Sequence record: PV730299.1
Strand: one strand, 5' to 3'
From: a phage
DNA: 64,000 nt
Numbering within the stretch: position 1 is the stretch's first letter; each line of letters begins with the position of its first letter. Shown here in pieces: positions 54,532 through 64,000 of this stretch. The notes under the pieces are model-generated. The model searched no databases. It was not told the origin of the DNA and saw only the letters and a program-made list of their open reading frames with translations. Position numbers and translations under genes: made by a program.

Positions 54532-56733
54532 TTAGATTTTGATTTCTTTCTCTGTCAGTTCGGCAGTGACCTTGTACTTCACGCCATCCACTTCAACTTC
54601 CATGGTGGACTCTTCCAAGTCGAGGTCGGTGAACCAGCCATGGCCAGCAACGATACCATAAACCACTTTAGACAGCGTCTTGTTCAGGGCACGGACTTCG
54701 GTGATGGCCGCCTTGGCAGCAGCGTCGATCCAGTTTTCGATCAGATGTTTCTGTAAGGCTTCAGGCACGGCAGTGATCATAGGAGACTTCACGAATGCTT
54801 CGTACTCCTTCAGCGCATTGGCGATGAACAAGTCACCAGCATTGAGTTTCTTGTTCTCGGCAATCTTCTTCTGTACCGCTGCGATAGACGGTAGAGAAGA
54901 AGCGCCAGCGATCTTCACGTTCAGCTCACGGCTCATGTAGAAGTCGGTAGACTCTTTGGTCTCAGTCTTCGGTGAGAATCCGTAATCGCGGATGCCGTAG
55001 GAGGACAGGAACTCGGCCGCCTCAGCGCCGTACTGTACTGCCAGGCCTTTGGCGTTACCCTTACCAACCAGGGCGTCTCGATAGAACTTCAGCACCTTCT
55101 GCTTGCCTTTCAGGGCTTCCAGACGGACATTATCCGCAAAGAACTGAGCAGCACTGATGTTCTTGACCATGGCGCGGTTGACCAGTGGTACACTTTCCAG
55201 GTTCAGGACAAACACTTCTGGACCACCAAACACGTGGACACCCATTTCGATCAGCTTATGCACGACTTCGATATCAGCCTTGAACGGCAGAGTCTTCACG
55301 TTAATGATACCGTCTTTGACGATCGTGTAGTTGCGCCACTGGAAAGTATCCAGTTCTTCAGGCAGGCCGAACTTCTTCTGTGCGAATTCAGGCACAGCCA
55401 CAGTACCGTGTTGAATTGTACGCACACTGATGTTCGGGCGCTCGGAGTTATAGACCAAATCGCTGATTGGCACAACACCCAGGTCGTTGGTAGGTTCGAA
55501 CGTCGGGTTCCACTCTTCGTGCTCTGCCAGCTTGAGAGCCAGGGCTTTACGCTCTTCTTTGGACTGAGCATTCGCGATCTGTTCTGCCAGCTTGTCTTCG
55601 GTGTCGTCGGTTTTCTGCACAGTACCGCGCCCGATACTCTTATAGGAGAACATCGGATGCTTGGTAGCAACAGGCACACCAGCTTCAGCCAGGTACGTCA
55701 GCACATCAACAACGGTGGTCGCGTCTTCGGCCGGAACCAGGTCATAGTCAATACCGTCAACGCCGCGCAGCTGGTCGTCAACAATCGCCTGAACCAGATC
55801 GTTCTTGATGTTGGAGTAGTCCTGCTTGGTGAAGCAGTTGCTGTACTGTTTGATGAAGCGAACGTCACCCGTTTTCTTCAGTGCAGCCCACACCAGGTCC
55901 GCGTCCATGATGTGTACGCCGTAGAACGCCAGCACGTATGCCGCCTGGATATCCGTCAGACTATCCATCTGGTCGATCATGTTAGGGTTTACAACCCACA
56001 GCTTGGTGACGCTCTCAGGGATGCTCACATAGCCGACCGGGTGAGAGTCATCGTCCTGCACCGCCAGTACTGTTGCCACACCGTTTTCGACGTAGATGGC
56101 ATGGGTGTAGATGACTGGGACATCAACTTTCACCTTCGGCACTGATGACTTCAGCACGTTTTCCAGTTCGGTCTGGTATTCGGTCTGACCTTCGGCAAAC
56201 ACATGAGTCGCGCCAGAGCGCTCGGACATCAGAGCCAGCAGTTCGCGGTTACAGTGCCAGCCGTATTCGATGAAAGTAATGTTATCGAACACAGAAGGCA
56301 AGGTTTCGGCGACGGCCAGGATTTCGTTTGAGCGCCAGCAGTTGTCATAACCATCGGTCATGAATGCCAGGTTGTTGACGTAACCAGGTTTCTTCAGGTC
56401 ACGCGCAGTATCCATCGCCAGTTTCAACGGCTCAACGAAGCCAGTACATCCGGACGGTTGCAGGAAGCGATCGATCAGTTTGTTCAGCTCGCTCAGGTCA
56501 GACGCAGCACTAACCTGGCGGCCAGCGAACACAGTACCAAAGTCGCCTTTGGAGGAGAAATACAGAACGCTCACAGTGTCTTCCGGTTTCACCAGGGAAG
56601 GCAGGTTCTCCTTCAGATGCTTACGGACTTCAGGGAGCGCACGGTACATAGAGCCGGAAATGTCTACAACGATTACATGGTTGGACGGGGCAGCAGTCGC
56701 AACCGCATTCTTAAATTCTAATGATTCAATCAT
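54532..56733 (-). CDS. von Willebrand factor A (vWA) domain protein
   Basis: Start set at MIESLEF; MIDAS-like VIVVDISGSM near N-terminus followed by vWA-like fold; about 500-aa C-terminal region without recognised motifs. Confidence 0.6.
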   Translation of the reverse strand: MIESLEFKNAVATAAPSNHVIVVDISGSMYRALPEVRKHLKENLPSLVKPEDTVSVLYFSSKGDFGTVFAGRQVSAASDLSELNKLIDRFLQPSGCTGFVEPLKLAMDTARDLKKPGYVNNLAFMTDGYDNCWRSNEILAVAETLPSVFDNITFIEYGWHCNRELLALMSERSGATHVFAEGQTEYQTELENVLKSSVPKVKVDVPVIYTHAIYVENGVATVLAVQDDDSHPVGYVSIPESVTKLWVVNPNMIDQMDSLTDIQAAYVLAFYGVHIMDADLVWAALKKTGDVRFIKQYSNCFTKQDYSNIKNDLVQAIVDDQLRGVDGIDYDLVPAEDATTVVDVLTYLAEAGVPVATKHPMFSYKSIGRGTVQKTDDTEDKLAEQIANAQSKEERKALALKLAEHEEWNPTFEPTNDLGVVPISDLVYNSERPNISVRTIQHGTVAVPEFAQKKFGLPEELDTFQWRNYTIVKDGIINVKTLPFKADIEVVHKLIEMGVHVFGGPEVFVLNLESVPLVNRAMVKNISAAQFFADNVRLEALKGKQKVLKFYRDALVGKGNAKGLAVQYGAEAAEFLSSYGIRDYGFSPKTETKESTDFYMSRELNVKIAGASSLPSIAAVQKKIAENKKLNAGDLFIANALKEYEAFVKSPMITAVPEALQKHLIENWIDAAAKAAITEVRALNKTLSKVVYGIVAGHGWFTDLDLEESTMEVEVDGVKYKVTAELTEKEIKI

Positions 56734-56941
56734 TGTTCTCTTCGCCTTGTGCGTAAGGGTTAAGTTCAGACTCATCAGCGGCTTCGATGCGCGTCTTTAC
56801 AGAGTCCAGCATATTGTTGATAAATTCACGAGACTGCTCCAGCTGAGCCAAGAGCACATCCTTTGGAGCATAGTTCTGAATGCAAGCCGGAATACTTTCA
56901 GACGTCGCCTTCAGGTCGGTAAAACATTCTTTCAGTATCAT
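56726..56941 (-). CDS. hypothetical acidic protein
   Basis: 71-aa ORF overlapping vWA gene start by 8 nt. Confidence 0.35.
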   Translation of the reverse strand: MILKECFTDLKATSESIPACIQNYAPKDVLLAQLEQSREFINNMLDSVKTRIEAADESELNPYAQGEENND

Positions 56942-57009
56942 TTGATCTCACTTAACAGAGACGAAGCCCTGTTGGGATTTAATAGCGGTCTTCACAGACA
57001 TCAGGTTTC

Positions 57010-57036
57010 CCTCAAAACAGGGGAGTCTCCTCCCCT
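57010..57036 (-). terminator. rho-independent terminator downstream of NAMPT-family gene
   Basis: GGGGAG-tctc-CTCCCC followed on minus strand by TGTTTTGAG. Confidence 0.55.
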
Positions 57037-57043
57037 TCGGTTA

Positions 57044-58708
57044 TCAGATTTGTGAGGCCAGTTCTGTCACCAGAGGAGCGGCACGAACACGCGCATCTTC
57101 CAGTGTTTGAGTATTGAAGAACTCGCCATCACGATACACCAGCTGGTGCTGGTTGTCGGCGTCTTGCACCTGATCAAAGGTGATACCGTCAACCAACACT
57201 AGTTTACCCTGAGAGTCTTTAATGACTTTAAGGAAACCACGCGCAGACTTTTTAGTCCCGCCTTTATCGGTCTTCGGCTCTTTGAAGATCTCACGGAATT
57301 CGCCGTTCACTTTACCAGCCGTGGCTTTCACCGCCGTGCCAGTACTGTCACGGGTGTTCATCTGGTAGGTGTAGGAACCGATACCGAACACCACGTTGAT
57401 GGAAGCGAAGTTCCGGTCAGCCAGACGGCTAAAGATCTGGTCTTCACGCGACAGGGTGATAGAATCACCGTAGATCAGGCCGATGTGCTCATCCAACAGG
57501 AAGTGCCCAGTTTCAGTCTGGGTGCCACCAAAGATCTCCCACAGGCGCTGGATAGAGCCGACCGCTTCTGAACGGCTGATGATATTACGGTCATCTGCCA
57601 TCAGAGAGTTGATCGTGCCTTCGCCTGTAATCAGGTGGTAGGTGTTCGTCTCTTCGATGTGAATAACTTCTGTGTCGCTAGACACACCGCTAATGTTCAG
57701 CGTGGCACGGTCTTTGAACCCCTCGATGCGGTAGCCGCCAACAATGTGTACAGGGTCGCCCGAGTCGGGGCGGATCACGACTTTACCATTGCGCGCCATG
57801 ATAATGTCTTTCAGGCGAGGGAGATAGTCGTCGATGACCTGCCAGTAATCCCATGCATCAGACACGATGCTGACGGTGCCATCAGGATACACGTCCTGCA
57901 CCAGGCGGCGGAAGGTTTCGAATTCGCCATCCTTCGTGCCCATACACATCACGGCGTGTTCGGTAGCCGCAACAGAACCAGCAACGACATAATCTTCGTC
58001 GATGTCTGCGCCATAATACTCTTCTACGAAGTCTAGGGCAGGGTTGGTATCGGTGCCTTTGAAGAACACCAGATGACCGGAACCGGAAGACGCCGCGTCA
58101 TGCCACCCGCTCATACCACGGAAGGAGAAGTCGTGGCCTTGGTAGTCGATGAACCAATGGTCCGGCGACACGCCTGTAGCGAGGGCAGCTTTCACCATCA
58201 GTGCCTTGTAATGCAGAGCTATGGTGGCGTTCGTCATCGGCTTCCATATCTCAGAGCTGAACACGGTCTCCAGATAGTTGGTCAGCCAGTAGAACTCCGG
58301 CAGGGTATTGAACATCACATACACCGGAACGCCATACGGGCACATGGTGCCTTCAGGCAGCGCACGGACTTCGATAGGAAGGTAGCCGAGGTCATGCAGG
58401 GCTTCAATATGCTCTGTGCCGACGCGGCCTGGACCCAGGACTTTGTTCATGCGACGGGCATACTTCTTCAGCACCTTGGCCTTCGGGCACTGGAAGAATG
58501 CTTCGTCAAACAGTTCGTGGAACCAGGTCATGAAGCCCTGGATGCCCCAGACCACCACTCCGTTCTTCGGCAGGTGAGAGTTGAACAGTTTGTTAGAGCG
58601 CGGAGTTCCGTTGGAGAACACCAGCTCACTGCCTTCAGGGAACTGATAGATGTGCCCCGATTTGTAGAAGTCGATTGCATGGATTGGGTCTAAGTGGCGC
58701 ATGCTCAT
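57044..58708 (-). CDS. nicotinamide phosphoribosyltransferase-family protein (NadV/Namat-like)
   Basis: 554 aa; NAMPT-family pattern along full length; ATGA overlap with Prs-family gene; terminator downstream. Confidence 0.8.
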   Translation of the reverse strand: MSMRHLDPIHAIDFYKSGHIYQFPEGSELVFSNGTPRSNKLFNSHLPKNGVVVWGIQGFMTWFHELFDEAFFQCPKAKVLKKYARRMNKVLGPGRVGTEHIEALHDLGYLPIEVRALPEGTMCPYGVPVYVMFNTLPEFYWLTNYLETVFSSEIWKPMTNATIALHYKALMVKAALATGVSPDHWFIDYQGHDFSFRGMSGWHDAASSGSGHLVFFKGTDTNPALDFVEEYYGADIDEDYVVAGSVAATEHAVMCMGTKDGEFETFRRLVQDVYPDGTVSIVSDAWDYWQVIDDYLPRLKDIIMARNGKVVIRPDSGDPVHIVGGYRIEGFKDRATLNISGVSSDTEVIHIEETNTYHLITGEGTINSLMADDRNIISRSEAVGSIQRLWEIFGGTQTETGHFLLDEHIGLIYGDSITLSREDQIFSRLADRNFASINVVFGIGSYTYQMNTRDSTGTAVKATAGKVNGEFREIFKEPKTDKGGTKKSARGFLKVIKDSQGKLVLVDGITFDQVQDADNQHQLVYRDGEFFNTQTLEDARVRAAPLVTELASQI

Positions 58709-59559
58709 TTTACACGTCCTGTATTTTCAGTTTTGAAAGGAAGCCCGTCGGCGGTGATGTTCTCCCACCAGACAGTGTCGGCATACACAGCATCATAGAT
58801 CCCGTCGAAAACAGAGAGACCTTTGCTGAAGATGCCATGGGTAACGAAGAGTGTCATGTGCTTAGGCTTGTGCTTCTGAAGCTCTTTGCCTAACTCAACG
58901 AAAGTGCGCCCGCCGTCGCAGATATCATCAACCACAACCAGATAGCGGTCTTTGATCAGTTCAGGGTTCGTAATACTCACCCCAATGATCTCACCAGTCT
59001 TGGTGTCACGGTTCTTGTGACCGTAGACAATAGGAACACCGTCCAACGACAGGCTGAGGGCTTCGGTCTTCTTAGCCGCGCCGCCGTCAGGGGCCACCAA
59101 CACAGCGTTGTTCCCACGGATGAACCAACCCAGATACTGACGCACGATGTAATCTTGCGGGACAACATGGACGTTGTTGATCAGAGAAGACACAACATGG
59201 CTGTGAGGATCTTTGATCGCCACGCGGTCAAAGTTCATGCTATTGATGAACTCAGCCGCCCACTTCACAGACAGAGGCTCACCGAAGTCACAATGGCGGT
59301 CCTGGCGAGCATACGGGAAATAAGGGATATACGCATGGAATGTCGTCAGACGGTCCACGTTACCCAGACCACGAACGGCGTTTACCAGAAGCGCCAGCTC
59401 AATGAAGTCAGCCGATGATTTGATGTGAGCATCAATCACCACGTTCTGAACGTGGCCGATAGGGATACCAGACTTTTGAATCTTGATATGTTCCTCACCA
59501 CCTGGGAAGGTGAAGTGTTTGTAGAACACATCTTGGTCGTTCAATTTCAAACGAAACAT
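58705..59559 (-). CDS. ribose-phosphate pyrophosphokinase-family protein (Prs/Adps-like)
   Basis: 284 aa; phosphoribosyl-binding block VVVDDICDGGRTF and N-terminal Prs-like domain; GAGG RBS. Confidence 0.8.
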   Translation of the reverse strand: MFRLKLNDQDVFYKHFTFPGGEEHIKIQKSGIPIGHVQNVVIDAHIKSSADFIELALLVNAVRGLGNVDRLTTFHAYIPYFPYARQDRHCDFGEPLSVKWAAEFINSMNFDRVAIKDPHSHVVSSLINNVHVVPQDYIVRQYLGWFIRGNNAVLVAPDGGAAKKTEALSLSLDGVPIVYGHKNRDTKTGEIIGVSITNPELIKDRYLVVVDDICDGGRTFVELGKELQKHKPKHMTLFVTHGIFSKGLSVFDGIYDAVYADTVWWENITADGLPFKTENTGRVK

Positions 59560-59615
59560 AATGCAGCCTCATGGTGTATTGTACAGCCGTATTATACTGT
59601 GATGCACAAATTGAA

Positions 59616-59639
59616 ACGTCCAGCATTTACGCTGGACGT
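59616..59639 (-). terminator. hairpin terminator candidate
   Basis: 9-bp stem ACGTCCAGC/GCTGGACGT downstream of gene 59668..59901 and upstream of Prs/NAMPT pair. Confidence 0.45.
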
Positions 59640-59667
59640 TATTGATATTGAAAAGGTTTTGACAAAC

Positions 59668-59901
59668 TCAGGATTTGGAGGAAGCGCCCTTCCATGTCTG
59701 ACGTTTGTAGTGGGAAGCCATGGCCATCGACCCGGCGTATTGTGTTTCACCCCTGACTACCACAGCCACAACCAGCTTATGTCGCAACAGGAAGTCCAGA
59801 CCTGACTTAGACGGGATATCGCCAATGCTCAGTGGACCACGATTGTACAGGGCATACATGGTGTCAAGCGCCGCCCCGGTAAAGATAATCTCTTTAGACA
59901 T
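59668..59901 (-). CDS. hypothetical protein
   Basis: Start moved to MSKEII; terminator downstream. Confidence 0.35.
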   Translation of the reverse strand: MSKEIIFTGAALDTMYALYNRGPLSIGDIPSKSGLDFLLRHKLVVAVVVRGETQYAGSMAMASHYKRQTWKGASSKS

Positions 59902-59908
59902 GGCGGTC

Positions 59909-60214
59909 TCACTTAAACGAGTCAACGATGGATGTAAGAATTTCGGGGGTGGGTTTGGCGTCTTGTGGTTCACGGAAACCCACCTTTGCGATGCGACCCA
60001 AGACATTGTACACTTCGCGCGGAAGGGTGTCTACGACCGTGTCCGACATGAACGCCACGTCTTCTTGGATGGCGTTGTATTCGGCCAGTTTAGCCAGTTC
60101 TGATTCTACCAGGGACTTCAGCTTTTGCAATGGGTCGTTGCAATAGTTGAGACGGTTGCAGTTGGTGAGCGCCTGGGTTAGATTCTCAAACGCTTCTTGT
60201 ATTTCCTTTGACAT
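59909..60214 (-). CDS. hypothetical protein
   Basis: ORF-track start is TTG; internal ATG (MSKEIQ) used. Confidence 0.35.
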   Translation of the reverse strand: MSKEIQEAFENLTQALTNCNRLNYCNDPLQKLKSLVESELAKLAEYNAIQEDVAFMSDTVVDTLPREVYNVLGRIAKVGFREPQDAKPTPEILTSIVDSFK

Positions 60215-60301
60215 TGATATGTGCCTCGTATTGTTGACAGACAACAACTACTTTACGGCACATGTCGATATCGAACAAGCCAATATGACACTCACGCTTC
60301 T

Positions 60302-60595
60302 TTATCCCCAGCTTATGCGCCAGCCAACTGTAAGCGTCGCTCCTGCTCCTCTCTCCGTTTTCCATAATGGGTCAAACGATCTATGGGCTTTTTGCTTCTC
60401 GGCACGGAGAGCGGCATTCGCCATCCTTCCCAGAGGCTGTCTGCCGTCGCCATGGGCATGGCAACCGACACGGGCATCACACGGGGTGCATATCCAGAAC
60501 TTCAGATTGCGGAGGTCAGGGCGATGAGGGTAGAGAACATCACCACCGACGAATTCGGCTGGGAGGCCACAGTAATCACATATAACATGTTTCAT
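60302..60595 (-). CDS. DUF3268-like zinc-ribbon protein
   Basis: Start at MKHVICDYCG; CxxC...CxxC with PLG and FDPLWK blocks typical of this phage zinc-ribbon family. Confidence 0.55.
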   Translation of the reverse strand: MKHVICDYCGLPAEFVGGDVLYPHRPDLRNLKFWICTPCDARVGCHAHGDGRQPLGRMANAALRAEKQKAHRSFDPLWKTERGAGATLTVGWRISWG

Positions 60596-60655
60596 ATTCT
60601 TTGTCCAAAAGAAACCCCGCACATGGCGGGGTTGCTCAGGCTGAGGTCAGACAGA

Positions 60656-61027
60656 TTATTTCAGGAGTGCTTCCAGTTCTTCAACAGATTTGCTTTCCAG
60701 CTCTTGCTGTTTCTTACGCTGGATCAGCTCCAGGATAATCTGGTTGTTCGCCTTACGCTCTGCCGCTTCTCTGCTGTCGTCACGTTCTTTCAGCTTAACG
60801 CCGATGATGTGCTTGACAACGTCGAAGCGCAGCTGCAGTTCGGAGTCAACGTTGCTTTTGGTGCCAATGAAATCTTCTTCATCGGTTTCTGCTGCTTTCA
60901 CCTGACGGCTCAGACCTTTCGCCATTTCGTTCAGGGCAGTCAGGCTCAGGTCCCAGACCTGCTCAACAGACAGCAGACCTTTGTTAGACTCGAAGCGCAG
61001 TTTCATACGGGTTGCTTTATCAAACAT
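60656..61027 (-). CDS. hypothetical protein
   Basis: 123-aa charged, helical-looking ORF. Confidence 0.4.
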   Translation of the reverse strand: MFDKATRMKLRFESNKGLLSVEQVWDLSLTALNEMAKGLSRQVKAAETDEEDFIGTKSNVDSELQLRFDVVKHIIGVKLKERDDSREAAERKANNQIILELIQRKKQQELESKSVEELEALLK

Positions 61028-61071
61028 TTTACTATCCTCAATGATGAATGGGTTACAATTTCAAATCAGGT

Positions 61072-63090
61072 TTAGAACACAACTTTCACAGTGCGGTTGA
61101 ACGAACCGCTCACCTTCACGAACACGTGGTTACGTTGGGTGGTAGAGAAGCCCAGACCGGACAGCTGCTCAGTGCTTGGCTGTACTTTAATCTTACCACC
61201 TAACATTTCAAAAACCTTGCGGTGTTTATCAAGTTCCGGCTTCAGATATTCGTTATAGAAACCACGGGTGCCGACAGGGTTAGCACAACCTTCCAGGATG
61301 AAGAACACGTGCTTGTTGCCCGTCTGCTCGCCGTCCCAATGGTTTGGTGAGTTCAGAACCAGCTGTACCTTCTGGAAGACGGAGGTCTTGATGCCCCAGA
61401 TTTCCTGAGAGCGAGCGTCGTCTTTCAGGGTAGAACTGATGTCAACCACCTGACCAGCGCGAACCTGAACCACAACAGCCAACGTGCGATCTTTGTTACC
61501 CAAGCCAGGGTGTGAGAAGCGCTTAGTCTGACCTTTGTATTCAACTTCGATTTCGAAACCAACGTCACAGGTTTCACGCTTGTTGAAGTTGGTGACATAG
61601 AACTCATAATTCCCGTCGCGCAGCTTGCTTTCATCGCTAAAGAAGATGTTCTCCACCGGACGGCGGTTTGGATCAATGCCGTCCATACCGTTCATGTCGA
61701 TGTCCAGAGTTGCGCCAGTTGACGAACGACGGTTGCGAAAATATACGTGGTTGTGAAGAGGATCGTTCATGCTCAGATCCAGGTCGTCGTTGTTATGCCA
61801 AGCCAGTGACACACGGAGGAAACTGTCGACATTACCACCTGCGGTCTTCACGCGCTCTTTGATGGAGTCGGCCACTTCGCCATTGTACGACCAGCTGAAG
61901 CCGTTGTTCCACTTGAACAGGTTAGGAGCGCCTGCGGTGGCCGGAGCGATCAGGGACATCAGGTTGCCAATGTGAGAGTTTTCGACCAGCACTTCCAGGG
62001 AATGCGCCTTTGGCAACACGTTTGTCAGGAAGTCGTCGATCGTGATCTCTTCAACCTTGTCCAGGGACTTGGTCGGAGTCTTCACTTCAGACGCCAGCTG
62101 AGCAAACGGGTCCATCTTCTTCTGAGCTGCCAGATCGGCGAACAGAACGTTGTTGATGGTCAGATCGTCATACACGGCATAACGGCGACCCAGTGAATCA
62201 GTCAGACCCAGCGCTTCGACTTCTTTCTGCGCGTTTTCAATCATCGACTTCGTGACCAGCGCGGTTGGGCGCTTGTAGTTCGTCGGAGCGACTTTGGCTT
62301 CAAAGGACTTCACGGCGGTTTCCAGATCCCGGCCTTCATTGAGGTCTACCAGCAGAGAGCCAATCACGGTATTACGAATGCCGTGAGGGGTATGACCGTT
62401 TGCACGGTAGCCAGTGCGCCAAGCCCACAGAGCGCGTTTCTCTTCTGCAGTTTGTTCGTACATGGTCTTGTTCACCACGAACGCCTGCACTGCCGCTTTG
62501 TGCTCTTCACCGCGATACAGAGAATTCTGGTCAATCAATTCCAGAACGATTTCAGCCGATTCCAGAGACAGTTCACGCAGGCCGCGCTCAAACACTTCAA
62601 TCGCCTGGCGGATTTCACCCTTCTTAGAAGCGATGGTATCTGCCCGCAGAACATAGCTGCCCAGCAGGTCGGTGTGGAAGTGGTTGTAGGTGCGGACAAT
62701 ACCATCTTTCATTTCGTGATTCGACTCAACACCAACTTTCTTGGTGTCGTTGAAGTACACGTCGACGATTGCGTGCTGCTTAACATACGCTGACAGCGCC
62801 GCAGCGACAACGTCGTATTCGTTACCCAGCTGAATGTTATCCCAGATAGAGATCACGTTCAGGTCGGCGTCGATGGTGACCACACCGCCGATGTTACGGA
62901 TGAATTGTTTACAGCAGGTGCAGTCGTGCTCGGTACGCTCACGGTAGAGCGGGTTGGTACCAGCAGGAAAAGAAGACAGATACAGATCCCACAGAGCATC
63001 TTTATCGATGTTGGTCATGAACAGACCAGTTGCTGACATGGCTAGCACGTTGTTGTTAACAGCTACTGCGAAGGGCTTAAATTCTGACAT
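61072..63090 (-). CDS. large hypothetical protein with N-terminal Cys motif
   Basis: 672 aa; HDCTCC motif near N-terminus; AGGAAGACTACACC-ATG initiation motif; no family recognised. Confidence 0.55.
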   Translation of the reverse strand: MSEFKPFAVAVNNNVLAMSATGLFMTNIDKDALWDLYLSSFPAGTNPLYRERTEHDCTCCKQFIRNIGGVVTIDADLNVISIWDNIQLGNEYDVVAAALSAYVKQHAIVDVYFNDTKKVGVESNHEMKDGIVRTYNHFHTDLLGSYVLRADTIASKKGEIRQAIEVFERGLRELSLESAEIVLELIDQNSLYRGEEHKAAVQAFVVNKTMYEQTAEEKRALWAWRTGYRANGHTPHGIRNTVIGSLLVDLNEGRDLETAVKSFEAKVAPTNYKRPTALVTKSMIENAQKEVEALGLTDSLGRRYAVYDDLTINNVLFADLAAQKKMDPFAQLASEVKTPTKSLDKVEEITIDDFLTNVLPKAHSLEVLVENSHIGNLMSLIAPATAGAPNLFKWNNGFSWSYNGEVADSIKERVKTAGGNVDSFLRVSLAWHNNDDLDLSMNDPLHNHVYFRNRRSSTGATLDIDMNGMDGIDPNRRPVENIFFSDESKLRDGNYEFYVTNFNKRETCDVGFEIEVEYKGQTKRFSHPGLGNKDRTLAVVVQVRAGQVVDISSTLKDDARSQEIWGIKTSVFQKVQLVLNSPNHWDGEQTGNKHVFFILEGCANPVGTRGFYNEYLKPELDKHRKVFEMLGGKIKVQPSTEQLSGLGFSTTQRNHVFVKVSGSFNRTVKVVF

Positions 63091-63209
63091 GGTGTAGTCT
63101 TCCTGTTTCAGTTCAAATGTGCGCCCCGTTTGCCAGGGCGCTTCGTTTAAGTGAGGTCAATAATACGTTGAAAAGAGTTATTGAAGAACGAAGTAAAGGG
63201 AATCTTTAT

Positions 63210-63434
63210 TCAGACGATCTTACCGCCGTCACAAGGCCGAGTATCACCGGAGTTGTATGCCAACATCCCCTGCATCAACAAACGTCTTGGCCCAGAAACT
63301 GATTTCTGTTTCCTCAACGTACTACAAAACCGAGTAGTGCCTGGGTAAGGAGTGTACACGAGACGTCCTTCCATACGGGCTTTCAGAAGAAACTCATCAG
63401 TCGCTTTACGCAGTTTGAACAATTTCCAGCTCAT
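63210..63434 (-). CDS. hypothetical basic protein
   Basis: 74-aa ORF directly downstream of the NUMOD3-containing ORF. Confidence 0.3.
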   Translation of the reverse strand: MSWKLFKLRKATDEFLLKARMEGRLVYTPYPGTTRFCSTLRKQKSVSGPRRLLMQGMLAYNSGDTRPCDGGKIV

Positions 63435-64000
63435 TTCTCACCCTTGTATCTTTTTAACCATTTGACGCATTTTAATGGTTCCCACCCTTTATTGAAACGT
63501 TCGATTATCCCACTGGTGGCATTAAACGCCTTCAGATCTTTTGTTCCGTACACATGCATGAGGGCTTCTGAACGTTTCATCGTTTTCAGGGCTTCAAGGA
63601 ATTGATCAGCTTTCTCCCAATATACGTCATTGTCGGGGTTCCATTTACCCTTCTCCCAAGGCATCTTAGCCAACATGCCTTTCTGAGCGTTTTCTTTCTG
63701 TTTGGCGCGTTGCTCTGGTGTGAATGAGTTGGTTAAGTCCTTCCCATAATTGGGATTGAGTTCCCCCAGTTTAGCTTTCCTGGCACATTCAGAAAATTGT
63801 TCTAAATCCATGTTGGCGCGGCGTTTCTCTAAAACCCGCCTTTTATATTCAGGATCAGAAGCCATCCTTTCATGGATTTTCATCAATCCTTTGGTAATTT
63901 TCTTGACTTGCTCTGGGGTTCTCTTATACCCATATTGGGGATTATTCTTTCCTCTTCTCCCATACATTGGGTTGTCTTTACCCACAAACCGAGAAACCCC
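63431..64000 (-). mobile_element. homing endonuclease-like gene, C-terminal NUMOD3 DNA-binding region (N-terminus beyond window edge)
   Basis: Tandem NUMOD3-like motifs (GKDNPMYGRRGKNNPQYGYKRTPEQ) typical of GIY-YIG/HNH homing endonuclease DNA-binding domains; reading frame continues to window end; catalytic domain not visible. Confidence 0.45.

Follow-up and report, generated by a model that had tools for sequence, protein, structure and literature searches.

The phage NARP1 pathway, made up of the enzymes Adps and Namat (Osterman et al., 10.1101/2024.02.11.579819), regenerates NAD+ from ADP-ribose (ADPR) and nicotinamide by converting ADPR to ADPR-PP and this in turn to NAD+, and crystal structures of phage Namat have been solved (9W5X and 9W5W; PMC12774641). 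The Macro-domain phosphatase Adpp is a counter-defence add-on of NARP1 operons (10.64898/2026.01.28.702374). Phage proteins with an RyR domain (the RyDEP family), reported in May 2026, cleave or sequester the cyclic ADPR signals (2'/3'cADPR) of Thoeris, and the founding RyDEP lies in the NARP1 operon of mycobacteriophage DyoEdafos, where it supplies ADPR to NARP1 (PMC13232231). Here we analyse a locus of this known kind in a 64,000-nucleotide (nt) stretch of phage DNA (record PV730299.1; hereafter the window, numbered from its first letter), in which four small open reading frames (ORFs), named A to D in transcription order, precede genes resembling Adps and Namat.

A sequence-only reading of the window had noticed these four ORFs, of 77, 101, 97 and 123 amino acids (aa), beside a NAMPT/Prs pair, and had proposed that they form an anti-defence island of ORFans. 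Their sizes and bounds proved exact, all four lie on the minus strand, and homologues were found. The interpretation that we favour, and consider probable, is that the four ORFs straddle a DUF8224-A cassette and an accessory counter-defence slot, the latter partly decayed in this phage, with D intact. The ORFs would then not be one functional unit: A would go with the conserved cassette, and B to D would occupy the accessory slot, which in the Ackermannviridae would collect NARP1, a gp49_66-RyR gene of the RyDEP family, and the small genes B, C-like, D, a 119-aa gene and s71. Decay of the slot in the window would consist of the frameshifting of B and the deletion of the gp49_66/RyR gene that left C, with NARP1 and D remaining intact. 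The features concerned are as follows.

61072-63090, minus strand: DUF8224 gene, 672 aa, from the ORF list (PF26675 precomputed on orthologues)
60656-61027, minus strand: gene A, 123 aa (phrog_2018, E 1.6e-47)
60613-60633, minus strand: intrinsic terminator between A and B (-19 kcal/mol)
60302-60595, minus strand: 5' part of gene B (97-aa ORF), a DUF3268 zinc ribbon with an out-of-frame tail at its end
60357/60358, minus strand: site of the 1-nt deletion in gene B, a G missing between these bases according to alignments
60186-60357, minus strand: 3' part of gene B in the shifted frame, helical C-terminal half of DUF3268
59909-60214, minus strand: gene C, whole ORF, 101 aa
59975-60214, minus strand: residues 1-80 of gene C, homologue of the Kuttervirus 83-aa "C-like" gene (phrog_9847)
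59909-59974, minus strand: residues 81-101 of gene C, a tail like the gp49_66/RyR-family C-terminus (...IVDSFK), putative deletion scar
59668-59901, minus strand: gene D, 77 aa, intact, predicted minimal winged helix
59615-59640, minus strand: hairpin 3' of D, 10-bp perfect stem with a weak T tract
59591-59596, minus strand: TATAAT hexamer, inside the conserved block CAGTATAATA between the hairpin and Adps
58705-59559, minus strand: Adps-like gene (Prs fold), first NARP1 gene, 284 aa (Pfam and PHROG matches)
57044-58708, minus strand: Namat-like gene (NAMPT fold), second NARP1 gene, 554 aa (PDB 9W5X/9W5W)
56726-56941, minus strand: s71, a small acidic-tailed gene of 71 aa, variable slot occupant
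54532-56775, minus strand: vWA-domain gene, 747 aa, conserved far boundary of the slot

Every gene in the region from DUF8224 to the vWA gene is thus on the minus strand, and homologues use the same start methionines. Given the homologues that each of the four has in other phages and pairwise ratios of nonsynonymous to synonymous substitution rates (dN/dS) of 0.08-0.24, a sign of purifying selection, within the four families (the values for B and C coming from intact relatives), the four ORFs are real genes and not chance ORFs. The window derives from a member of the Ackermannviridae, a family to which the Kuttervirus and Agtrevirus phages infecting Salmonella and E. coli belong, and shares 98% identity with Escherichia phage LHE287. 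In the 6.4 kb surrounding the four ORFs, identity is 97-98% to Escherichia phages LHE287, YX22 and AV101 and 85-95% to Agtrevirus and Kuttervirus phages; over the four-ORF region itself the best match in the phage collection reaches 98.4%, and none is exact.

The Adps-like and Namat-like genes lie on the same strand with a 4-nt overlap. The Namat-like protein matches the Namat structures 9W5X/9W5W with an E-value of 1.8e-134, compared with 4e-50 for mammalian NAMPT, and the Prs-like (Adps-like) protein falls below every NCBIfam Prs cut-off (e.g., 106.8 versus 113 bits); closeness to Namat and sub-threshold Prs scores together indicate that the predicted pair fits NARP1. As in NARP1 operons with extra genes, small genes are packed alongside the Adps-Namat overlap, and, as in RyDEP, an RyR domain is present in the gene that immediately precedes Adps in Kuttervirus relatives. 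In Kuttervirus SilasIsHot this gene (gp40, 290 aa), located between B and Adps, combines the Phage_gp49_66 (PF13876) and RyR (PF02026) domains, and by its domain content the Kuttervirus gp49_66-RyR gene is a predicted member of the RyDEP family. Unlike the NARP1-AP (Adpp) and DyoEdafos (RyDEP) systems, the window has neither a Macro-domain gene nor an RyR-domain gene, and the neighbours of its NARP1 pair (B, C, D and s71) belong to no characterised NARP1-associated family.

Gene A encodes a small helical protein with homologues in 432 phage records and dN/dS values of 0.12-0.24. A DUF8224 orthologue directly precedes it in 22 of the 22 A-carrying IMG/VR loci, which include contigs without NARP1 at only 41-44% identity to A. 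This adjacency holds for each of the A-bearing loci recovered, those at 41-49% identity among them. The pair recurs in Xanthomonas phage RiverRider (Schitoviridae, gp36/37), Bacillus phage BCP01 (Herelleviridae, gp179/180) and the phiCbK-like Caulobacter phage Magneto (gp282/283), at 42-47% identity to the window for DUF8224 and 35-42% for A. Conservation of the cassette across the Ackermannviridae, Schitoviridae, Herelleviridae, phiCbK-like Caulobacter phages and several IMG/VR contigs amounts to 35-52% identity, and DUF8224 is unusually conserved, with a mean column identity of 55% over 10 distant sequences. Because the same adjacency is seen in Ackermannviridae loci and in three distant phages, A is the predicted small partner in a widespread two-gene DUF8224-A cassette, a pair kept in four unrelated phage groups. 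A profile search of the PDB returned no relative of A or DUF8224, and no paper naming DUF8224 was found in the literature. Highly conserved and uncharacterised, the cassette may be the most interesting find in this region and may merit separate study. In Dickeya phage PP35 (L037 3316-4498), a homing endonuclease gene adjoins a truncated DUF8224 gene of 93 aa, with no gene A, so that this "conserved" cassette can be destroyed in viable phages.

The terminator between A and B (60613-60633) is a canonical hairpin with an 8-bp GC stem plus TTTCTTTT (AACCCCGCCATGTGCGGGGTT + TCTTTTGG). Its stem is common to LHE287, SilasIsHot and Gloob, the loop of SilasIsHot being different. This terminator would form the end of the DUF8224-A cassette and its boundary to the variable slot. 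The sequence-only reading had credited the four ORFs with a terminator of their own; two terminator-like hairpins are in fact present, this canonical one inside the cluster and a 10-bp one after D (59615-59640).

Between the A terminator and the vWA gene, the slot shows at least 14 gene arrangements among approximately 35 related loci. Its pieces are B, the 83-aa C-like gene, a gp49_66-family gene (241-291 aa, with or without a C-terminal RyR domain), D, Adps and Namat, the 119-aa gene and s71. NARP1 is intact in the window, LHE287, YX22 and AV101, and absent from A221 and many Kuttervirus genomes; an internal Adps-Namat deletion is present in RPN242, a 110-aa Namat remnant is all that remains in PP35, and contig L015 retains an Adps remnant. 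Slot deletions are also found in Gloob, RPN242, A221, L015 and PP35. As judged from gene content, the slot is a hypervariable, recombination-prone accessory hotspot with predicted counter-defence cargo, a reading that we regard as well founded. Since its content is variable and the NARP1 and RyR-domain families are mosaic among its cargo, the concept of an anti-defence island is supported for the locus, but not for any one of the four genes. If the slot is a counter-defence hotspot, the Ackermannviridae give a natural gain and loss series (NARP1, RyR and D present or absent), which would ease the assignment of function to DUF3268, the D family and other small genes. Among the close relatives, NARP1 has been lost repeatedly (RPN242 L045, A221 L044, PP35 L037 and L015).

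Gene B had been described as a DUF3268-like zinc ribbon, and PF11672 (DUF3268) confirms this: the 97-aa ORF matches profile positions 2-79 of 121 (E 3.6e-19, 69.7 bits) and is the front two-thirds of a 136-aa gene. Profile positions 78-120 are matched by a shifted 59-aa ORF at 60186-60365 (E 9e-12, 45.8 bits), and both parts exceed the Pfam gathering score of 28.4. In the window B does not, therefore, read as one polypeptide over the whole 121-position domain; with the two frames joined, the match is full-length and the conserved Cys/His positions are present, and a tblastn search with intact B splits in two at the deletion site. At that site the window carries a 1-nt deletion (TGGAAAA-CGG) where LHE287, RPN242, A221, SilasIsHot and Gloob read TGGAAAAGCGG, such that TGGAAAAGCGG marks intact B and TGGAAAACGG broken B. 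Intact B spans 411 nt (136 aa), with the full gene annotated in YX22 and AV101. The 136-aa form is intact in the six closest relatives: four annotate it, the DNA of A221 is intact with the gene unannotated, and in fGh-Ecl02 its presence is deduced from matched length only. The deletion is unique to the window among the seven members of its lineage; it either arose by mutation in this strain or is an artefact of assembly. Programmed frameshifting was rejected as an account of the two frames: restoring the intact frame requires a -1 shift at TGG-AAA-A, a heptamer of no slippery type; the A run, at 4 nt, is too short for transcriptional slippage; and all six close relatives have one extra base.

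DUF3268 (PF11672) is a zinc-finger-containing domain of phages and prophages, common in phages of Proteobacteria and Enterococcus, which B matches once its frames are joined; unlike typical DUF3268 genes, the window copy is split by the 1-nt deletion, and the family is without known function. In a confident structural model of an intact B orthologue (pLDDT 95), three helices follow a zinc ribbon. With homologues of B in 682 phage records and a Pfam family to its name, B is no ORFan, nor is A, and the term fits C and D only roughly. B homologues elsewhere typically lie in small-gene arrays of early regions, twice directly after a DNA methyltransferase. Within the Ackermannviridae, several genomes have B missing, truncated or frameshifted, and this patchiness in viable phages indicates that B is dispensable. 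Literature on DUF3268 was limited to genome notes and RNA-motif papers. An Rfam scan of 56500-63500 gave sub-threshold chance matches only and no structured RNA upstream of B; it was not checked if Rfam holds a model for the published "DUF3268" RNA motif.

Gene C combines sequences of two origins. Its residues 1-80 cover positions 1-80 of 83 in phrog_9847, with 48-52% identity to the 83-aa proteins of four Kuttervirus sequences (L020, L021, L024 and L026). The gp49_66-family gene comes next after the C-like gene in Kuttervirus; in the window the C frame continues for about 20 residues past the C-like end (...PTPEILTSIVDSFK), and this tail resembles the C-termini of the gp49_66/RyR family (...DYIFKGIVDSFK, ...ALYKSIVETFK). 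The C stop lies just upstream of the D start (7 nt), as does the stop of the gp49-family gene in contigs L004 and L006. On the simplest reading, C would be the scar of a 0.7-0.8 kb deletion, by which the gp49_66(/RyR) gene was lost and its last ~20 codons were fused to the C-like gene. The direction of this deletion, like the transcription units of the locus and any activity of B, C or D, we infer. No gp49_66 or RyR sequence was found in the whole 64-kb window, and the C protein itself has no Pfam RyR (PF02026) match and no gp49_66 domain. The fused form is confined to the lineage of the window, forming one 90% cluster in 5.8 billion proteins and occurring in six phage records. C thus occupies the position that the RyR-domain (PF02026) anti-Thoeris proteins of the RyDEP type hold in Kuttervirus and contig L006 and shares the tail ...IVDSFK, but unlike RyDEP it has neither an RyR nor a gp49_66 domain and keeps at most ~20 residues. 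Without an RyR domain, C cannot be classed as a RyDEP member.

These observations bear on two alternative explanations. The first, that all four small proteins are immune-evasion proteins clustered with NARP1, draws on the clustering of anti-defence genes, on the hypervariability of the slot, on the location of B homologues in early small-gene arrays and beside DNA methyltransferases, and on the recruitment of further counter-defence genes by NARP1 operons (10.64898/2026.01.28.702374; PMC13232231). We consider it very unlikely, since A accompanies DUF8224 in four phage groups regardless of NARP1, the reading frame of B is broken and C represents a truncation-fusion. PADLOC, NCBIfam and PDB sequence searches gave no match for any of A, B, C and D, and PDB sequence searches with the four proteins, DUF8224 and the family profiles returned nothing significant. 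Structure prediction followed by Foldseek comparison with anti-defence folds, which had been proposed as a check and which was run on B and D, retrieved no known anti-defence protein for either. A PDB match to "Ap3" (9sgv, E 0.24) was set aside, its sequence being apparently an idealised winged helix by composition and only a hint at the fold.

The second alternative holds that B, C and D are functionless relics drifting to loss in the window phage. The frameshift of B, the fusion scar in C and the many slot deletions among relatives speak for it, but D is under purifying selection (dN/dS 0.08-0.14) and has stayed full-length across lineages even where synonymous sites are saturated, and the intact B and C-like genes of relatives show dN/dS values of 0.09-0.21; we therefore regard this explanation as improbable. 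The four-ORF cluster of the window is nonetheless largely a remnant beside an intact NARP1. On the preferred reading of a partly decayed slot, D is the only intact candidate for a new function among the four, and for the window the immune-evasion claim holds, weakly, for D alone; in relatives, the intact B and C-like genes could also be candidates. The cluster advises caution with guesses about ORFans: of its four members, one is a broken gene, one a putative deletion scar and one part of an unrelated conserved cassette.

The AF2 model of D (pLDDT 87) is a minimal winged helix with topology H-(b)-H-H-b-b and a C-terminal helix. The top Foldseek matches in the PDB are MarR, ArsR, SSV1 F-93, AspA and ScpB (TM 0.58-0.67, E 0.02-0.1), and matches in BFVD are uncharacterised phage proteins only. 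The protein is basic, with a net positive charge, and carries the motif RGPL-x2-GD-[IV]-PSK-x-G; through this conserved helix-turn motif D might bind nucleic acid or a host protein during infection. Synonymous divergence in D exceeds that of the flanking genes in the same genome pairs, suggesting exchange by recombination. Close homologues of D fall into five clusters and 42 phage records, 20 of them from Dickeya Limestonevirus. In the Ackermannviridae D is always located directly upstream of the Adps position, and it is kept without NARP1 in A221, RPN242 and the 20 Dickeya phages. Its retention after the loss of NARP1 indicates that D is independent of NARP1, and an obligatory functional link between the two was rejected on this ground and on the absence of NARP1 near all 48 remote D-like loci (0/48).

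Between D and Adps, the hairpin at 59615-59640 has a folding energy of -17.1 kcal/mol (z -4.8). Silas, L004, L006 and SKML-39 keep the hairpin but differ in its stem bases; it occurs in relatives without D as well, and is likely a terminator or RNA-processing element ahead of NARP1. That it serves as an operator for D appears improbable: genomes lacking D have it too, and the changes in its stem compensate each other, pointing to an RNA structure. The CAGTATAATA block is kept in Silas, SKML-39, RPN242 and A221, and the TATAAT at 59591-59596 within it is a possible promoter -10 element, a position that the promoter scan did not report. The literature search found no Ackermannviridae infection transcriptome.

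Anti-CRISPR-associated (Aca) proteins with a helix-turn-helix (HTH) regulate acr operons. D resembles the small HTH regulators of the Aca type and the MarR/ArsR winged-helix proteins in being small, basic, a predicted winged helix and located amid counter-defence genes. It differs from all of these in that no sequence similarity is detectable, no operator was found and the conserved motif is in the turn, not in the recognition helix, and from Aca regulators also in remaining where the adjoining counter-defence genes are lost. D could be conceived as an Aca-like winged-helix repressor or activator tuning NARP1, the RyR gene or its own operon, a proposal favoured by the predicted fold, nearest to MarR/ArsR repressors and the viral DNA binder F-93, by the charge and small size of the protein, by its co-location with counter-defence genes and by its position directly upstream of the promoter-like region of NARP1. 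Its persistence in phages without NARP1 and RyR genes argues against such a role, as do the nature of the sole nearby inverted repeat (the hairpin, found also without D and with compensating stem changes), the location of the best-conserved positions (RGPL..GDVPSK.G), which fall in the turn ahead of helix 3 and not along a recognition helix, and the fusion of D-like domains to varied unknown domains in varied contexts. We hold the regulator proposal to be possible but rather doubtful.

A further alternative is that B and D are accessory proteins of DNA metabolism (helpers of replication, recombination or modification) and not of immune evasion, and owe their location to the replication and nucleotide-metabolism block in which the region lies. 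The fold of D is of a DNA-binding type; the genes upstream include regA, a clamp loader, an NTP pyrophosphohydrolase and a 5-hmdU DNA kinase domain; and polymerases, nucleases, methylases and thymidylate synthase are among the genes near remote D-like genes. B is, however, dispensable, being lost or broken in several viable relatives, and D and C occur in a few lineages only, a patchiness that fits accessory genes better than core replication. This alternative appears unlikely to us.

An exhaustive profile search expanded the D family to approximately 100 clusters at 50% identity, sharing the motif L-x-GA-x2-D-T-L-x-AL-x3-GPL-x2-GDVPSK-x-G. The family has no Pfam entry, and no Pfam co-domain was found among these clusters; an 802-aa match in the same search (P0055) was discarded as a repeat-protein artefact. 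Tentatively, and with low confidence, we propose that D is the founding member of a previously undescribed family of small winged-helix proteins in phages and acts as a stand-alone counter-defence factor or defence-sensing regulator independent of NARP1, with B, the C-like gene, the 119-aa gene and s71 as further counter-defence genes in a mineable hotspot extending from A to the vWA gene. While the locus is of a known kind, the D family is a modest lead.

Several points weigh against the reading of the locus as a partly decayed counter-defence slot with an intact D. The 48 remote D-like loci from IMG/VR share no recurrent neighbour: none has NARP1 close by, and a Macro domain and a gp49_66 gene each occur near one. 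The association of D with NARP1 is limited to the Ackermannviridae, and common descent of the locus could be its whole explanation. Neither experiment nor structural similarity connects B, C or D with any defence system. The slot lies in a replication and nucleotide-metabolism region, with regA, the clamp loader and the 5-hmdU kinase upstream, and a housekeeping role for small DNA-binding-like proteins is conceivable. A sequencing or assembly artefact, instead of true decay, could account for the frameshift in B, and the match of the C tail spans ~19 residues and is not significant alone (E ~1), the case for a deletion otherwise resting on synteny.

Domains related to D also occur outside the Ackermannviridae. 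A D-like winged-helix domain is found in a 155-aa protein encoded between lysis and terminase genes in lambdoid phages (mEp043, L040 3992-4459), and in jumbo phages a D-like domain is present in Burkholderia phage FLC9 (L039 3962-4294) and, by fold, in PhiPA3 gp276, Noxifer and RisingSun.

Slot genes can be fused to one another. Erwinia phage Bue1 (L038 4752-5210) encodes a 152-aa fusion of an N-terminus like the 119-aa gene product and a D-like C-terminus, and in orf107 of Dickeya phage PP35 (L037 5709-6251) an SKML_119-like domain, resembling the 119-aa gene product, is fused to an s71-like domain; these predicted fusions hint that the small slot proteins may work together.

The genes of the window slot are tightly packed, the C stop lying 7 nt before D and an intact B overlapping the C start by 28 nt (60214-60186), and the C and D proteins both start with MSKEI. 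Packing and common start suggest that these genes may be translationally coupled within one transcription unit.

Upstream of DUF8224, a 184-aa ORF at 63431-63985 (minus strand) carries the DNA-binding motif NUMOD3, which is characteristic of homing endonucleases. Relatives such as LHE287, Gloob and YX22 have an ORF of ~400 aa in its place, and the 184-aa ORF is possibly a mobile-endonuclease insertion.

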